Shown here in pieces: positions 12,015 through 25,728 of a stretch of DNA of 30,075 nt (the stretch's first letter is position 1; each line of letters begins with the position of its first letter). The translations under genes and the position numbers were made by a program. Below the pieces are notes generated by a model, which had not been told where the DNA came from, made no database searches, and saw only the letters and a list, made by a program, of their open reading frames with translations. Origin of the DNA: Armatimonadota bacterium (GTDB lineage Bacteria; Sysuimicrobiota; Sysuimicrobiia; Sysuimicrobiales; Humicultoraceae); contig JBBIOM010000026.1 of NCBI GenBank assembly GCA_037443365.1, forward strand, positions 1-30,075, read 5' to 3'.

Positions 12015-13130
12015 GTGCCTCGCGAGGTCTTCGCCGAAGAGATAGAGGCCTTCCTGGAGCGGCTCGACGCCATCGCCGCCGTGCGCGTTCTGGCGAACGA
12101 GTCGGGCGTGATAGAACGCATCCACGTAACAACGGAATCGGCCCGTGACGACGGGGCGATCCGCCGCGCCATAACCACGGCGCTGATGAGCCAGTTCAAC
12201 CTTCCGGTGGACGGCTGGCGCATCCAGATCGCGCACTTCGAGCCTGCGCCCCAGCCCCAGCCACTTCCCGAGTGCCGCATGGTGCGGCTGGAAGAGACGA
12301 TAACCGAGGCTTTCACCAAGGCGCAGGTCGAGCTGCGCTACGAGCGCGAAGGTACCCCCAAGACCCTCACCGGAACCGCCCAGGCCCCGCCCGGTTCGGC
12401 GCACCGGCTGCGCACGGTGGCGGCGGCGACGCTCGAGGCGATGCGCCCGCTCGCGCAGAGGGCAGGCCAGCGGCTCTCGCTGGAGGGCCTGACGCTCGTG
12501 CCCTTCGCAGGAGCCACGGTCGCGCTGGCCGCGATCGGGGCGGCCTCCGAGCGCGACACCGTGCTCAGCGTGGGCGCCGCGGTGGTGTCCTCGGGTGACG
12601 CGGAGGCTGTCGTCGCGGCCGTGCTCGATGCCGCGCGCAGGCCGCCGCGGCCGGCGGAACGGACCGGCAGGATCCGACAGGACCGCAGGCACCAGATCGA
12701 GGGACTGCGCCAGCACTACGAGCGCCTGCTGCGCAAGGAGGCGGGCCCGCCCGAGGCGCCCGCGCCCCAAGAGATTGCCTCATCCGCGCCCCAGGTTGCG
12801 GATGAAGCGCCGGCCGACATTCGTCCGGAACGTCAGGGAGGTGCTGCGATCTTGACTCGTGATGACTTTCGCGCGGACGCGCAATCCTCAGCCAAGGCAC
12901 CGCCGCGCGCCTCCGTGGAGGATGCCTTCTACCGCCGCCTGGCGGCCACGGGCGCTCCGGTGCACATACGGTGCCGCGACGGCTACGAGATCCCCACCGC
13001 CGTGGTGAAGGAGTTCGGGACGTACAGCCTCCTCGTGGAGGTCAACGGCGTCACCGAGCTGGTCTTCAAGCACGGCATAATAGCCATCCGGCCCTACGGC
13101 CCGCTGCCGCCCGAGCCAGGGACGCCCTAG
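12015..13130 (+). CDS. Uncharacterized protein with C-terminal Hfq/Sm-like domain
   Basis: Residues encoded by 12912-13094 (SVEDAFYRRL...PVHIRCRDG...FGTYSLLV...ELVFKHGIIAIRP) align by eye with the Hfq core (SLQDPFLNAL...PVSIYLVNG...FDQFVILL...QMVYKHAISTVVP). Confidence 0.8.
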   Translation: MPREVFAEEIEAFLERLDAIAAVRVLANESGVIERIHVTTESARDDGAIRRAITTALMSQFNLPVDGWRIQIAHFEPAPQPQPLPECRMVRLEETITEAFTKAQVELRYEREGTPKTLTGTAQAPPGSAHRLRTVAAATLEAMRPLAQRAGQRLSLEGLTLVPFAGATVALAAIGAASERDTVLSVGAAVVSSGDAEAVVAAVLDAARRPPRPAERTGRIRQDRRHQIEGLRQHYERLLRKEAGPPEAPAPQEIASSAPQVADEAPADIRPERQGGAAILTRDDFRADAQSSAKAPPRASVEDAFYRRLAATGAPVHIRCRDGYEIPTAVVKEFGTYSLLVEVNGVTELVFKHGIIAIRPYGPLPPEPGTP

Positions 13131-21098: not shown

Positions 21099-21980
21099 TT
21101 GGAGGACGCCCGACCGTCCCCGGCGCTGTCCGAACTCGATCTGGCCACCCCCAGGGGTTTGCGGGCGGCGCTTTCCGCGTCTGGCCTGCGCCTGCGCCCC
21201 TCGCGCGGCCAGCACTTCCTTGTCAGCCGTCACGTGCTGCGCCGGATTCTGGCTGCGGCCGAGATCGAGCCCGGCGAGGCGGTGCTGGAAGTGGGCGCGG
21301 GTCTGGGCACGCTCACCGTTGCGCTGGCGCGGGCCGGCGCGCGGGTCAGCGCAGTGGAGGTGGACGCTCGATTCATCCCTGTGCTGCGCGCGGTGTGCGC
21401 TCCTTATCCTGACGTGCGCATCCTGCACGCCGACGCCATGGCCCTGGACCTGGGGTCGCTGCCCGAGCCGCCCGCGAAGGTCGTGGCCAACCTGCCCTAC
21501 GCCATCGCTTCGCCGCTCCTGGTGAACCTGCTCGAGGCCGGCATCGCGGGCAGGTACGTCGTGATGGTTCAGCACGAGGTGGCCGGGCGCATCGTCGCTC
21601 CTCCGGGCGGGAAGGACTACGGGCTGCTCTCGGTGGCGGTGCAGGCGCGCGCGGTCGCACGCATCGTCGCGCGCGTGCCCCGGGCGGCGTTCTTTCCCCC
21701 TCCCGAGGTGGACTCGGCCATCGTAAGGCTGGATGCCCGCGACCTGGCCGCCGCGTCCCGGGCGCTCATGCCCGAGGTCCTGTCCGTGGCCAGGGCGGCC
21801 TTCGGGCAGCGCCGCAAGATGCTGCGCTCGGCGCTGCGGTCCGTGGCCGGCCGTGCCCTGTCCGCGCCCGAGGTCGAGGCCCTCTGCCAGGCGGCAGGGA
21901 TAGACCCGCGGCGCCGGGGGGAGAGCCTGTCGCTTGAGGAGTTCGCGCTCCTGGCGCGGGCGTTACGCAACAGGGAGTGA
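21099..21980 (+). CDS. rsmA: 16S rRNA adenine dimethyltransferase
   Basis: GQHFL, VLEVGAGLG, VANLPY, VMVQHEVA, FFPPPEVDS, FGQRRKML; exact start uncertain. Confidence 0.95.
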   Translation: MEDARPSPALSELDLATPRGLRAALSASGLRLRPSRGQHFLVSRHVLRRILAAAEIEPGEAVLEVGAGLGTLTVALARAGARVSAVEVDARFIPVLRAVCAPYPDVRILHADAMALDLGSLPEPPAKVVANLPYAIASPLLVNLLEAGIAGRYVVMVQHEVAGRIVAPPGGKDYGLLSVAVQARAVARIVARVPRAAFFPPPEVDSAIVRLDARDLAAASRALMPEVLSVARAAFGQRRKMLRSALRSVAGRALSAPEVEALCQAAGIDPRRRGESLSLEEFALLARALRNRE

Positions 21981-22044
21981 GCGGGTCGGCAGGGAAGAGT
22001 CAACTGCTGGAAGCAACGCTGGAACCAGGTGGGGTGGGATCGAG

Positions 22045-23298
22045 ATGCCAGAGTACGAGTCCTTCCTGTCCGCGCTGGCGCGCCGGGCAGAGCGCTCCGT
22101 AATCCGGGAGTTGCTGAAGCTGGCACGTCCCGGGAAAGTCATCTCGTTCGGCGGCGGTCTGCCCGATCCGGCCACGTTCCCGATCGCTGCGATCCAACAG
22201 GCCGTGGGTGAGATCCTCTCTGGCGGCGGGAGAACGGCGCTGCAGTACGCGACCACAGAGGGCGATCCGGCCCTGCGCGATGAACTCGCGCGCTGGATGG
22301 CCAAGGACGGAATCGGGTTCGGGCGCGACGACATCCTGATCACGACCGGCTCGCAGCAGGCGCTCGATCTGGCTGGCAGAGTGCTCCTCGATCCGGGCGA
22401 TGCGATCGTCGTGGAACTCCCCACGTACCTGGGCGGGCTGCAGGCCTTCCGCGGCTACGGCGTGGACATGATCGGCGTTCCCCAGGACGACGAGGGCATG
22501 GACATGCAGGCGCTGCGCGCCGTGTTGGCGCGCCTGCGGCAGGAAGGCCGCCGCCCGAAGTTCATCTATGCCGTGCCCGATTTCCAGAACCCCTCCGGCG
22601 TCACCTGGAGCCGACAGCGCCGCGAGCAGTTGCTGGACCTGGCGCGCGAGTTCGACACCCTGATAGTGGAGGACAACCCCTACCGCGAGATGCGCTTCCT
22701 CGGGAGCGCTCCCCCGCCGATAGCCGCGCTTGACCCCGAGGGGCGCACGCTCTACCTTTCCACCTTCAGCAAGACGCTGGCGCCCGGCCTGCGCATAGGA
22801 TGGATGGCCGGCCCCCAGCCTGTCCTCTCGAAGTGCGTCGTCGCGAAGCAGGGGATGGACCTCTGCGGCCCGGCGCTGACGCAGGCGATCGCCGCGGTGC
22901 TACTGGGGCGCGGCACGCTGCTGGAGCGGCTCCCCTCGGTCGTGGGGCTCTACCACCGCAAGCGCGACGTGATGCTGGAAGCCCTGGCGCAGGGGATGCC
23001 CGAGGGCGTGTCGTGGACGCGGCCGGAGGGAGGGCTCTTCCTGTGGGTGCGCCTTCCCGAGGCCGTAGACACCGGCGAGATGCTGAGGTCCGCGCTCGAG
23101 GAGGAAGCCGTGGCGTACGTTCCCGGGCAGCCGTTCCACGCCGACGGAAGCGGCCGCAATACGATGCGCCTGAACTTCTCCTACCCGCCCGAGGACGACA
23201 TCCGTGAGGGCATCGCCGGTCTGTGCCGGGTCGTACGCCGCCGCGTGCCGGACCTTGTCCACACAATCCACAGGAGCGGAACAACTGTTTCGGATTGA
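22045..23298 (+). CDS. PLP-dependent class I aminotransferase (LysN/2-aminoadipate transaminase-like)
   Basis: SFGGGLP, GSQQAL, FQNPSG, EDNPY, STFSK.LAPGLRIG, MRLNFS; start at ATG 22045. Confidence 0.92.
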   Translation: MPEYESFLSALARRAERSVIRELLKLARPGKVISFGGGLPDPATFPIAAIQQAVGEILSGGGRTALQYATTEGDPALRDELARWMAKDGIGFGRDDILITTGSQQALDLAGRVLLDPGDAIVVELPTYLGGLQAFRGYGVDMIGVPQDDEGMDMQALRAVLARLRQEGRRPKFIYAVPDFQNPSGVTWSRQRREQLLDLAREFDTLIVEDNPYREMRFLGSAPPPIAALDPEGRTLYLSTFSKTLAPGLRIGWMAGPQPVLSKCVVAKQGMDLCGPALTQAIAAVLLGRGTLLERLPSVVGLYHRKRDVMLEALAQGMPEGVSWTRPEGGLFLWVRLPEAVDTGEMLRSALEEEAVAYVPGQPFHADGSGRNTMRLNFSYPPEDDIREGIAGLCRVVRRRVPDLVHTIHRSGTTVSD

Positions 23299-23323
23299 CT
23301 ATCTGCGGGTAGTGCGCTAGCGT
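23295..23323 (+). promoter_or_regulatory. Sigma70-type promoter facing a gene-free gap
   Basis: TTGACT (23295-23300), 17 bp, TAGCGT (23318-23323). Confidence 0.6.
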
Positions 23324-23327
23324 CACT

Positions 23328-23420
23328 GGTGTCAGCGGCACGTGGCTGGTTGAGATGGGAGGAGGTACTCCTTCGGGAGCGACCCGGCCTAACTCAGCAG
23401 CAGGCGGCCGCTGACGCTTT
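23328..23420 (+). ncRNA. Candidate structured small RNA (~90 nt), family unidentified
   Basis: 12-bp closing stem GGTGTCAGCGGC/GCCGCTGACGCT, inner stem GCTGGTTGAG/CTCAGCAGC, apical CTCC-TTCG-GGAG; 5' end matches the predicted TSS. Confidence 0.5.
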
Positions 23421-24743
23421 CTACGGATTGGGCAGTCGCGCCGCGGCGTCGGGCGCAAGGAGCACGACGATTGCGCCTCCGGGCTGCGGCGCTTCCTCCC
23501 TGACCGCGAGCCCGCCCAGCGCGTGGGCTATCGCGCGCGCCACGTGCGGTCGGCCGGCGTTGTCAATGACTACCGTCGCGTCCGCATGCCTTGATTCCGC
23601 GCGCACCGCGACCGTCCTGAAGCCCAGCGCTCCCATGCGCAGGGCCACGCGCTGGCCCAGGCCTGGCACGCCGCTCGCGTTCACGACCTCGACCCGTTGG
23701 GTCTTCAGGTCCTCCTCGCCGAGGCCGTAGAAGAGGTCGGCCACGACCGCGCGTATCCGGACCGGATCAGGCTCCCAATAGAGGGGCGCGAAGCTTCCGG
23801 GCAGCGTCTCCACGCGCAGAGGCGCCCCGCGGGCGCGCAGCGCGAACACACCGAGCGTCACGATCTCGCCCCGGGTCAGGTCTGTCTGCGTGTTGCGGGC
23901 GAAGGCGTCCAGCAGCCGCGGTCCGGCCAGCACCGTGCGGGGCTGCCGCAGCTCCCGCACCAGCGCCATGATCACCTGGTGCTGGCGGTTCACACGCCCG
24001 ATGTCACCCAGGGGGTCTTGCCGGAACCGGATGTAGCCCGCGACCTGATTGCCGTTCAGGCGCTGCCGGCCCTTCTTCAGGTCCACGGTGAACCCGGCCC
24101 AGGAGTCCGTGTAGTGCATGTCCTTCTCGACGTCTATCTCGATGCCACCGAGGGCGTCCACCATGCGGGCGAACGAGTCGGGGCCCAGCTTGATGTAGTA
24201 GTCCACCCTTACCCCGAGGAAACGCTCCACGGTCCGAACCGTCAGGCGCGGTCCACCGTAGGCGTACGAGGCGTTGATCTTGGTGACGCCGTGGCGCGGT
24301 ATCTCGACGCGCGTGTCGCGCGGAATCGAGAGCGCGCCCAGGCGCCCTCCGTGCGGGTCGAACGAGACCAGGACGAGGGTGTCAGCGCGCGCGACGTTGA
24401 TCACCTGTCGGCGGTTGTCCAGTGTAACGTCAATCCCTATCAGGAGAACGTTCACGCGGTCGGTCAAGCGCAGCGGCCAGCCGAAGGCCTCGCGGTTGCG
24501 CCGCCCCGCGGCAGCCTCGCCCGTGCCGACCGTCATGTTGCTCAGGACGTAGAGGTAGATCCCCAGGGCCAGACCTCCGGCCACGAGTACCAGGACCGGC
24601 ACGCCCCAGGCCGCGATGCGCCACCAGCGCCGCCGGGCAGGTGGCGGGGGCGCAGCAGGGGCCCCGGGCTCGGCAGGAGGCCCGGGCTCGTCCGACAGGG
24701 CCTGCGGCGCGATGCGCTCTTCGATAGGGGGTCGCTCGGCCAC
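23421..24743 (-). CDS. LCP (LytR-CpsA-Psr) family protein with LytR_C domain
   Basis: TM helix; NVLLIGID, RADT, LSIPRDT, KINASY, RFR...DIGR..RQ; C-terminal VEVVNASGVPGL. Confidence 0.93.
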   Translation of the reverse strand: MAERPPIEERIAPQALSDEPGPPAEPGAPAAPPPPARRRWWRIAAWGVPVLVLVAGGLALGIYLYVLSNMTVGTGEAAAGRRNREAFGWPLRLTDRVNVLLIGIDVTLDNRRQVINVARADTLVLVSFDPHGGRLGALSIPRDTRVEIPRHGVTKINASYAYGGPRLTVRTVERFLGVRVDYYIKLGPDSFARMVDALGGIEIDVEKDMHYTDSWAGFTVDLKKGRQRLNGNQVAGYIRFRQDPLGDIGRVNRQHQVIMALVRELRQPRTVLAGPRLLDAFARNTQTDLTRGEIVTLGVFALRARGAPLRVETLPGSFAPLYWEPDPVRIRAVVADLFYGLGEEDLKTQRVEVVNASGVPGLGQRVALRMGALGFRTVAVRAESRHADATVVIDNAGRPHVARAIAHALGGLAVREEAPQPGGAIVVLLAPDAAARLPNP

Positions 24744-24749
24744 GGGGTC

Positions 24750-24778
24750 ATCTTACGGTAATAGCCCTCCCGGCGCAA
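24750..24778 (-). promoter_or_regulatory. Sigma70-type promoter of the LCP gene (probably leaderless)
   Basis: Minus strand TTGCGC, 17 bp, TAAGAT, then 6 nt to the GTG start at 24743. Confidence 0.6.
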
Positions 24779-24861
24779 CGAAGGCGGCCCCGCACGGAGG
24801 ACTTGCCCCCTGCGATACCTAACTGATAGGTGCCGCCAAGCCACACAGGGGGGCAGATGCT

Positions 24862-25728
24862 GTGAAGGAACTGCGCCTCAACGCCTACGCGAAGGTGAAC
24901 CTGGCCCTGGACGTGCTCCAGCGCCGCGAGGACGGATTCCACGAGGTCGAGACCGTCCTCCACACGATCGCGCTGCACGACTCGATCACGCTGCGCGAGT
25001 CGGGCGAAGGGATCCAGGTCGCCGCCAGCGACCCCTCGATCCCGACCGACGCGGGCAGCCTGCTGCACCGCACGGCCTCGCTCGTGCGCGAGAAGTACGG
25101 CATCGCGCGTCCCGTGGAGATCGAGGTGCACAAACGCATCCCGGTGGCCGCGGGCCTGGGGGGAGGGAGCGCCGATGCGGCGATGACGCTCATCGGGCTT
25201 GCCCAGATGTGGAAGTTGCGGCTAGACCGCCGCGAGCTCCACTCGCTGGCCGCCTGCCTCGGCTCCGACGTCCCGTTCTTCCTGGGCGGCGGGGCCGCGG
25301 TGGCCCGGGGCAGGGGCGAGCGCGTTCAGCCGCTTGCCCCCTTGCCGGCCACCTGGGTAGTGCTGGCCAGGCCGCGGTTTCCGGTGTTGACCGAGTGGGC
25401 CTACGGGCAGTTGCGCCCCGACGAGATCACAGCCCGCCCCGACATACCCCAGCTCCTGGACGCACTGGCGCGCCGGGATCTACCCGCGGTCGGGCGGCTG
25501 GTGGGCAACGTGTTCGAAGGGCTCGTCGCCCGCCACCACCCCATCGTCGCCGATCTCAAGGCAAGGATACTGCGCGGCGAGGCCTACGGGGCAGCGATGA
25601 GCGGGACAGGCCCCACCGTCTACGGGCTGATGGCCAACGAGGCCGCGGCCAGGCACCTTGCGGCGGACCTGACGACGCGTGATGATGTGGATGTCATGGT
25701 GACGCGGACCTTCGCGGAGGAGCGCTAG
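24862..25728 (+). CDS. ispE: 4-diphosphocytidyl-2-C-methyl-D-erythritol kinase
   Basis: AKVNLAL, DGFHE, KRIPVAAGLGGGSADAA, LGSDVPFF, MSGTGPT. Confidence 0.96.
   Translation: MKELRLNAYAKVNLALDVLQRREDGFHEVETVLHTIALHDSITLRESGEGIQVAASDPSIPTDAGSLLHRTASLVREKYGIARPVEIEVHKRIPVAAGLGGGSADAAMTLIGLAQMWKLRLDRRELHSLAACLGSDVPFFLGGGAAVARGRGERVQPLAPLPATWVVLARPRFPVLTEWAYGQLRPDEITARPDIPQLLDALARRDLPAVGRLVGNVFEGLVARHHPIVADLKARILRGEAYGAAMSGTGPTVYGLMANEAAARHLAADLTTRDDVDVMVTRTFAEER

Follow-up and report, generated by a model that had tools for sequence, protein, structure and literature searches.

We analysed a window of 30,075 nt (the whole stretch of DNA) from a genome of CSP1-3, which is named Sysuimicrobiota and described as a widespread, uncultured phylum in PMC11604079. 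In this window, a structured RNA gene lies at positions 23330-23420 (+ strand). It is a rod-shaped stem-loop of about 90 nt with a UUU end, and it is identified by its fold, by matches to a covariance model (CM), and by covariation. The upstream neighbour, which is outside the RNA gene, is an ORF of the class I/II aminotransferase family (21934-23298, + strand; PF00155, 7.4e-42). The convergent neighbour is an ORF of the LytR-CpsA-Psr (LCP) family (23421-24743, - strand; PF03816, 9e-45), and its stop codon (23421-23) abuts the 3' end of the RNA. An earlier note on this DNA had placed a candidate small RNA between convergent genes, and this is correct, as the aminotransferase gene ends at 23298 and the LCP gene ends at 23421. 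Upstream of the RNA are a -35 element (TTGACT, 23295-23300, + strand) and, after a 17-nt spacer, a -10 element (TAGCGT, 23318-23323, + strand). Ending 4 nt before the -35 element is a LexA-type palindrome (GAAC-AACT-GTTT, 23279-23290), and further upstream are two DnaA-box-like 9-mers, TTGTCCACA (23255-23263, + strand) and CAATCCACA (23264-23272, + strand), the second of which abuts the first. The last ~15 codons of the aminotransferase ORF overlap these upstream boxes.

RNAfold predicts that 23328-23420 (+ strand) forms a single rod with a free energy of -55.6 kcal/mol. Dinucleotide shuffles of this segment had a mean of -36.6 kcal/mol (z = -5.75), and none of 200 shuffles was as stable. The complement folds more weakly (-42.4 kcal/mol). 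The rod is built from a 12-bp terminal stem (23328-39/23407-18), more stems, the purine-rich segment GGGAGGAGG, an apical hairpin (CUCC-UUCG-GGAG, 23368-23379, + strand), and UUU. The rod with its UUCG-capped hairpin, purine-rich segment, and UUU end had been described in the earlier note, and the fold reproduces it. The 12-bp terminal stem that was also described is present in the fold, but its outer two pairs are not conserved among the relatives. The conserved RNA begins at about 23330/23331, which is where the stem starts and is 7-8 nt past the -10 element. The 5' half of the basal stem (23330-23343, + strand) pairs with 23404-23416, and the 3' half together with the short U-tract at 23418-20 (23404-23420 in all, + strand) is presumed to be the intrinsic terminator of the RNA. 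The U-tract is three long in the source genome. In 45 of 53 members, at least two U's come directly after the stem; these runs are 2-6 long, and they are absent in 8 of 53. A scan of the region for consensus promoters and terminators called neither one here.

We compared the RNA to known classes. A search of the whole window against Rfam 15 at the gathering score gave 0 matches. With a permissive cutoff (E < 10), the RNA region matched only MIR1883 and cold-seep-1, which are noise (14 bits), and when five divergent homologous loci were searched at E < 1, only an unrelated tRNA was found. So, the Rfam scan that was proposed in the earlier note returned no known family. The RNA had been judged not to be an SRP RNA and to be short for a 6S RNA, and both judgments were borne out. 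There was no match to SRP RNA (RF00169; the criterion was at least 40 bits, including the helix-8 loops) or to 6S RNA (RF00013, which is ~180 nt, while our RNA is only ~90 nt). The genome's real SRP RNA and 6S RNA are on other contigs (C16:46684-46783, 72.2 bits, and C4:3474-3655, 74.6 bits). A Y RNA (YrlA) was also rejected: the Ro/TROVE family (PF05731) had 0 matches in this 97.7%-complete genome, and the RNA has no Rfam match. A REP-like repeat or terminator was rejected because BLAST against the source genome gave one full copy plus chance matches of 14-22 nt, and the RNA has its own promoter in 52 of 53 members. The functional suggestions in the earlier note fared less well. A protein sponge that uses GGA motifs or mimics a Shine-Dalgarno (SD) sequence, as in CsrB/RsmZ, is not supported: CsrA (PF02599) had 0 matches in the genome, the GGA lies in an internal-loop strand and outside of the hairpin loops (apical loops are of the UUCG or GAAA kind or similar), and conservation of the SD-like run is loose. 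As for an Hfq-like partner, the only match to Hfq is a borderline one to a 401-aa frame that is 10 kb away (26.8 bits in Pfam, or 27 with frame neighbours, where the cut-off is 27), and there is no conserved linkage.

The RNA is nearly universal in its phylum. Of 61 related genomes, 45 had a BLASTN match to the element. With a covariance model that was made from 33 sequences and the minimum free energy structure, we found the RNA in 84 of 94 genomes from the phylum and in 52 of the 54 high-quality ones. (The tally of 94 includes two unpublished genomes, G015 and G024; without them it is 82 of 92, and the conclusions do not depend on either.) By family, the model matched 31/33 genomes from f1, 22/22 from f2, 18/23 from f4, 11/12 from f5, and 1/1 from f7, along with 0/1 from f3 and 0/1 from f6. 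Of the ten genomes that the model did not match, eight have a completeness of 59-89%; the other two (G081 and G083) are 96% complete. Genomes have 1-3 copies, mostly one, although several have two or three. In the source genome (2.2 Mb), the RNA is single-copy.

The CM search covered one phylum, and other collections were searched with exact patterns. Among 185,579 species genomes, an exact pattern for part of the core identified 31 stretches, which are from metagenome-assembled genomes titled Armatimonadota or Armatimonadetes (including CSP1-3), Candidatus Fervidifonticultor, Ca. Geohabitans, Ca. Nitrosymbiomonas, or just "bacterium". A looser pattern identified 93 metagenome stretches and 3 IMG/VR contigs. 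We ran the covariance model on 80 of the 93 metagenome stretches and on the 3 viral loci (83 in total), and 71 of these 83 pattern-selected loci were CM matches, with 62 distinct sequences. The other 12 (9 of 80 metagenome loci and 3 of 3 viral loci) had no CM match and were set aside as unrelated chance matches; the viral loci are considered chance matches because they have neither a CM match nor a rod. As far as we have searched, the RNA family is confined to CSP1-3/Sysuimicrobiota.

To count base pairs, we used 53 distinct genome-derived members that were aligned to the covariance model (1763 cells). Standard pairs are found in 93.9% of the 1763 cells versus 81.2% after shuffling, and 0 of 500 shuffles reach 93.9%, but these shuffle statistics overstate the support, because the model guided the alignment and the sequences share ancestry. 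Of 34 base pairs, 27 have changed on both sides, as compared to 8-14 if the partners are slid by 1-3 columns. A separate run of MAFFT and RNAalifold recovered the terminal, core, and apical helices, with four compensatory pairs. The homologue search and covariation test that the earlier note had suggested thus show an RNA that is near-universal in the phylum, with compensatory changes at 27 of 34 pairs. The strand is also clear. There are 180 cells with G.U and 20 with A.C, and CM scores are 48-109 bits for the sense strand and at most 31.5 bits for the antisense strand. This excess of G.U over A.C and the low antisense scores imply that the RNA is read from the + strand, which is the strand that had been preferred on the basis of G-U pairs. 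The conservation of the promoter is likewise restricted to the + strand.

The most conserved part of the RNA is a near-invariant core, with 5' G-A-G-R-U-G-G-G-A-G-(N)-G-A-G-G-U opposite 3' A-C-C-C-G-G-C-C-U-A-A-C. The core strands of the internal loop are 5' UGGGAG(N)GAGGU and 3' ACCCGGCCUAAC. In the source genome, the 5' core strand is GAGAUGGGAGGAGGU (23352-23366, + strand), and its invariant columns are the same in 53/53 sequences; it includes the G of a wobble pair, G23357.U23390, which is retained in 53/53 members. In the 3' core strand, ACCCGGCCUAACUC (23382-23395, + strand), CCCGGC.U.AC is invariant in 53/53 sequences. We model the core as short helices that are broken by a 1x1 R.A mismatch, an AG(N)/GG purine loop, and a bulged A. 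In family f4, GGCUUAAC is paired with UGAGAG, which is a single covariation from G-C to A-U and fixes the register of the core pairing. Outside of the core, the structure is kept and the sequence is not. The apical hairpin has compensatory changes in 4 of 4 stem pairs, and it varies by family in its sequence, its length, and its loop (UUCG, GAAA, and others), with an extension of ~35 nt in f2. The sequence of the basal stem has been replaced wholesale across lineages and paralogues (covarying forms include GUCAGCGG, GCCGGCGG, GCCAGCGG, and GCUAGCGG), and in helix 1, 12 of 13 pairs have changed on both sides.

The -10 element in the source genome is weak, as TAGCGT has only 3 of its 6 positions in common with TATAAT. 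Since the consensus scan called nothing, the promoter would be weak evidence if there were just a single sequence. However, the comparison across members confirms the TTGACT-17-TAGCGT promoter that was claimed in the earlier note. A TTG-type -35 element lies 32-34 nt before the start of the model in 52 of 53 members, and in 44 of these 52 promoters it is TTGACn, at a fixed distance from the start of the RNA. A TAnnnT -10 element is present in 46 promoters, of which 45 have a spacer of 17-18 nt, and TG precedes the -10 element in 35 of 52 promoters (this extended -10 is found in relatives and is absent in the source genome). The -35 element, the spacing, and the TGnTAnnnT-type -10 element are conserved while the sequence of the spacer is free to vary, which indicates that the promoter is real and that it moves with the RNA. 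We also noticed that conservation in the 45 nt upstream of the -35 element exceeds that at the end of the adjoining coding region.

The neighbours of the RNA differ among the families. They are the aminotransferase and LCP genes in f1; ispG and a pyridine-nucleotide oxidoreductase in f5; nadE for the long copy in f2, and an aldehyde dehydrogenase or unannotated ORFs for the short copy; ThyX in f7; and alanine dehydrogenase, tilS, or an M20 peptidase in f4. Overall, there are at least six unrelated neighbourhoods, the gene after the RNA is convergent in most contexts, and no protein neighbour was found to be conserved across families. Comparison thus shows a stand-alone gene with its own predicted sigma-70-type promoter, and with the basal stem and short U-tract as its putative end. 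The genome comparisons give strong support to the proposal of a stable independent RNA: the conserved promoter is mobile along with the RNA, the RNA is near-universal and covarying, and it has no match in Rfam.

The palindrome upstream of the promoter spans roughly -51 to -40. Among the 52 promoters from genomes, GAAC-N4-GTTY is perfect in 40, has one mismatch in 8, and has two mismatches in 4, which are the four promoters from f5. Among 103 distinct promoters (including those from metagenomes), 74 have a perfect palindrome, 18 have one mismatch, and 10 have two; the one other promoter is out of line and was probably mis-anchored. These 103 promoters have 27 different N4 sequences, so that the arms have high information and the centre has low information. 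The palindrome is at the fixed distance of 4 nt from the -35 element in four of the five families with matches. The arms match the core of the Gram-positive-type SOS (Cheo) box, which is GAAC-N4-GTTC in B. subtilis. Neither this palindrome nor the DnaA-like repeats upstream of the -35 element had been part of the earlier reading of this locus.

All 60 of the phylum's genomes that we searched encode LexA, and the source genome has two paralogues. The operator in this lineage is CGAAC-N4-GTT(T/C)G. CGAAC-N4-GTTTGC is found upstream of the main lexA gene (lexA1) at each of the 28 loci that were counted, which do not include two others that come from unpublished genomes. Similarly, CGAACAAATGTTCG is upstream of the second lexA gene (lexA2), CGAACATTTGTTTG is between the -35 and -10 elements of recA, and CGAACACTTGTTCG is between TTGACA and TATAAT, before an ORF of 221 amino acids on contig C8. 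The palindrome core in the RNA's promoter is identical to the core at lexA1, lexA2, and recA. The 2.2-Mb source genome has 65 sites that match GAAC-N4-GTTY, and the RNA's is the only one with a box that is followed, after 3 to 5 nt, by TTGAC. There are two differences from the other operators. First, the flanking base is different: the RNA's promoter is mostly GGAAC...GTTYC, while the lexA and recA operators are CGAAC...GTTYG. Also, the palindrome is upstream of the -35 element at the RNA, while the box overlaps or follows the -35 element at lexA and recA. Because of the different flank and the position upstream of the -35 element, the palindrome may be bound by another dimeric regulator. On balance, these comparisons lean towards LexA controlling the RNA's promoter via the palindrome.

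For the DnaA-like boxes, the two 9-mers are at offsets of -40 and -31 from the -35 element, and box 1 is at its -40 offset in most f1 promoters. Of the 103 distinct promoters, 75 carry one or two DnaA-like boxes at fixed offsets. Among the promoters from genomes, 42 of 52 have at least one such box and 36 of 52 have two or more. The source genome has a single cluster of at least three DnaA-like boxes, which is upstream of dnaA on contig C9 and includes TTATCCACA and TTGTCCACA, so box 1 of the RNA's promoter is the same 9-mer as in the dnaA-upstream cluster. DnaA-like 8-mers are not over-represented in the genome (122 were found, versus ~170 estimated from base composition). We rejected the idea that these boxes are part of oriC, as dnaA is on another contig, and it is ~1.0 Mb away in the near-complete genome G014 and 92-220 kb away in G058. 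Rather, the boxes move with the RNA into other contexts and so belong to its promoter. Promoters from f5, f7, and the short paralogues of f2 have none of them. Given these missing boxes and the degenerate palindrome in f5, the regulation is less conserved than the RNA. It is tempting to suggest that DnaA controls the promoter via the 9-mers, though we put the odds of this at slightly less than even.

Our best explanation for the locus as a whole is that it encodes a stand-alone rod RNA that is gated by LexA and DnaA and that acts via its core. We give this reading, which relies on sequence comparisons, a probability of roughly 0.55. LexA would bind to the GAAC-N4-GTTY palindrome 4 nt upstream of the -35 element, and DnaA would bind to one to three 9-mers just upstream of the palindrome. 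Cleavage of LexA after DNA damage would then allow the RNA to accumulate, while the state of replication initiation would tune the RNA via DnaA. In other words, DNA or replication stress probably turns the RNA on. The invariant, G.U-containing core would be presented by the two helices around it, the basal stem that covaries and the apical hairpin that varies, and it would be a sequence-specific platform for a protein or the ribosome and not a linear seed for pairing with mRNAs. That the core is a protein- or ribosome-binding surface is the weakest of our inferences, and we propose it tentatively; most likely, it would be a protein-binding site. More speculatively, the RNA might be the effector of a phylum-specific checkpoint for replication stress, and might restrain DnaA or the replisome, the 30S subunit (via the SD-like strand), or the division apparatus. 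It would then be an RNA counterpart to the protein factors Sda, SulA, and YneA. We view this checkpoint as improbable.

Other explanations need to be weighed against this one. If the RNA acts in trans by base pairing, then its purine strand GGGAGGAGGU, which is nearly a perfect SD sequence, would pair with the 3' end of the 16S rRNA or with C/U-rich mRNAs, and translation would be damped or particular mRNAs would be regulated, much as the LexA-controlled DinR acts on ftsZ in Klebsiella. All members seen have GGAGG or GAGG, and base-pairing sRNAs that are linked to the SOS response are known (PMC10907235). But conservation of the SD-like run is not strict: in many members, a 1-nt insertion divides it, and f4 and the short copies of f2 have an altered run. 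Also, the two conserved strands mostly pair with one another within a stable rod, and invariance on both strands of the internal loop suits the recognition of a shape better than a seed. In a search of the source genome for complementary sites, the gene itself was the only site within 1 mismatch out of 12 for the 3' core strand, and the 5' strand gave 55 matches without a pattern at 1 mismatch or fewer. We consider base pairing in trans to be unlikely. It is also rather unlikely, in our view, that the RNA is a constitutive housekeeping component of a ribonucleoprotein, with the palindrome and the TCCACA repeats being sites for other factors or elements that set the promoter's strength. Such a role would fit with an RNA that is near-universal and low-copy, like the SRP, 6S, and RNase P RNAs, with the stronger conservation of its core relative to the upstream boxes (these have degenerated or are lacking in f5, f7, and the short copies of f2), and with the difference in the flank between the palindrome and bona fide lexA and recA operators. 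It would not explain why the arms of the palindrome are exactly the core of the lineage's SOS box, with a free centre and a 4-nt distance that is kept in four of five families, or why box 1 is the same as DnaA boxes beside dnaA.

The remaining alternatives do not involve an independent non-coding RNA. The structure could be a cis element, either a bidirectional terminator or 3' stabiliser for the aminotransferase and LCP mRNAs or else a 5' leader or riboswitch. The position between convergent genes, the terminator-like combination of a basal stem and UUU, and the abutting LCP stop codon are all compatible with the former. For a leader, there is a co-oriented gene within ~60-120 nt after the RNA in f5 (ispG) and for the long copy in f2 (nadE). 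However, in these co-oriented contexts there are -10-like sequences past the RNA's U-tract, which weakens the case for a leader without abolishing it, and there is no match to a riboswitch in Rfam. More broadly, a conserved promoter lies directly upstream in 52 of 53 members, the same RNA appears in at least six unrelated neighbourhoods (mostly with a convergent gene after it), and the invariant core of 40 nt far exceeds what a terminator needs, so a cis element seems highly improbable. We give still less credence to a tiny mRNA. An RUG at 23355 opens a frame of 19 codons in the source genome (MGGGTPSGATRPNSAAGGR), and most members have ATG or GTG at the same position. But there is no SD sequence upstream, and the start codon is within a helix. 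The frame is broken by the 1-nt insertion in the core (in several members of f1, in all of f4, and in the long copies of f2) and by the ~35-nt insertion, and compensatory changes preserve the pairing instead. We therefore rejected a small-protein mRNA or type I toxin, and, as this core frame is broken in many members, the RNA is non-coding. From the comparative evidence, we conclude that it is a real and new family of stand-alone bacterial small RNA, with an unusual promoter that carries two putative operators.

Small RNAs that are controlled by LexA do exist, and we compared the CSP1-3 RNA to them and to other systems. In function, the LexA-controlled sRNAs and the SOS-linked 6C RNA are the closest, and in architecture the protein-binding rod RNAs are, but the CSP1-3 RNA belongs to none of these groups. 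DinR of Klebsiella pneumoniae is a LexA-controlled sRNA (PMC10907235). The likeness to DinR and to RNAs of the IstR-1/tisB type is the presence of a LexA operator in the transcription unit of an sRNA (PMC10907235), which in our case is predicted from sequence. DinR is cut from the 3' UTR of dinI, is Hfq-dependent, and pairs with ftsZ, while the CSP1-3 RNA is a stand-alone rod. The RNAs of the IstR-1/tisB type are cis-antisense to a toxin, while the CSP1-3 RNA has no nearby toxin ORF or detectable homology. In Mycobacterium tuberculosis, LexA ChIP peaks at two sRNA genes have been reported, with no clear induction (PMC3381160). The 6C RNA of Actinobacteria (RF01066) has been tied to the SOS response in Corynebacterium glutamicum (PMC5014011). 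Like our RNA, 6C is a lineage-wide, highly conserved, short, strongly structured, stand-alone RNA of high-GC bacteria, and it is linked to DNA damage and cell division. It differs in having two hairpins with C-rich loops, while the CSP1-3 RNA is a single rod whose core strands are G-rich and pyrimidine-rich, and the Rfam searches gave no match to 6C. The 4.5S, 6S, and Y RNAs are similar in that they have a long terminal helix that joins the 5' and 3' ends and conserved internal loops, and in being low-copy and lineage-wide, but the core sequence of our RNA is unlike any of theirs and their covariance models do not match it. The regulon of LexA in Gram-positive bacteria has the same core palindrome, while the RNA's box is upstream of the -35 element and has G and C swapped in the flank. 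Finally, promoters that are regulated by DnaA and clusters of DnaA boxes outside of oriC resemble this promoter, with its tandem 9-mers of the TTATCCACA/TTGTCCACA type ~1 Mb from dnaA (in G014). Here, the RNA's two candidate boxes abut head-to-tail, with 9-bp spacing, and they are missing in three sub-lineages.

We found no description of this RNA in Rfam or in the main text of PMC11604079, which never uses the term "small RNA". To judge by the absence of that term from that text, the phylum is without described regulatory RNAs, and the covariance model could be used to annotate a marker gene for it. A strongly constrained RNA that is near-universal and has an invariant core of 25 nt points to an RNA-protein interaction that may define this lineage. 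Few stand-alone sRNAs are known to be under the direct control of LexA, according to a 2024 review (PMC10907235), so an RNA gene with dual operators would be unusual. If our reading is correct, then this gene, by having DnaA boxes as well as a LexA-type operator, would connect signals of genome integrity to control by RNA in an unusual way.

The aminotransferase open reading frame upstream of the small RNA gene, as listed, spans the two DnaA-like boxes as well as the LexA-type box that precede the RNA (window positions 23255-23298), and its TGA stop lies within the -35 hexamer of the RNA promoter. Because a stop comes earlier in a relative (locus L015), the actual C-terminus may be upstream of the listed one, or the end of the gene may overlap the RNA promoter.

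Genes of the MEP pathway were repeatedly found near the RNA (21099-25728 in the window, and loci L100-L103 from relatives). In the window, positions 24862-25728 encode what we take, from the translation, to be ispE, which starts 1.4 kb downstream of the RNA; in family f5, ispG (GcpE) is directly 3' of the RNA. This proximity may be a coincidence. The earlier note had suggested an Hfq-like protein, encoded at 12921-13097 (+) in the window, as a possible partner of the RNA. This region gives a borderline match to the Pfam Hfq family (26.8 bits versus a cut-off of 27) that sits within an open frame of 401 amino acids, and the protein may not be a canonical Hfq.

Genomes of family f2 usually carry two paralogues of the RNA (loci L105-L114). 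The long form (127-130 nt), located upstream of nadE, has DnaA-like boxes and an apical hairpin with a GC-rich extension of about 35 nt. In the short form (92-96 nt) the hairpin is of the UUAGCC type, the palindrome is perfect, and DnaA-like boxes are absent. In G036, a genome of family f4, the same strand carries a tRNA gene (L115:1391-1464, -; 61.7 bits) that begins 37 nt after the RNA, with a TATAAT-like element between the two, so at this locus the RNA is followed by a second stable-RNA gene.

Upstream of the main lexA gene, we found CGAAC-N4-GTTTGC at 28 of the 28 loci examined in the phylum (contig C4 of the window's genome at about 70170-70260, -, and 27 others among L124-L152). TTTGCA, which makes up the 3' half, also appears to serve as a -35 element, and the box is followed by extended -10 elements of the TGCTATCAT type. 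Most genomes of the phylum encode at least two LexA paralogues. Elsewhere in the window's genome (contig C8, 51420-52116, +), the arrangement TTGACA-ta-CGAACACTTGTTCG-TATAAT is, by its sequence, a textbook SOS-type promoter. Behind it is an ORF of 221 amino acids that may, as a guess, encode an ImuA-like protein of SOS mutagenesis.

The sole DnaA-box cluster of the same genome, with four strict 8-mers in 230 bp, is on contig C9 (15489-15720). Its boxes include TTATCCACA and TTGTCCACA, in both orientations. Located upstream of a match to the dnaA AAA+ domain (C9:13730-14206, -), at a distance of about 1.3 kb, the cluster is a candidate for the origin of replication (oriC) or for a dnaA control region.
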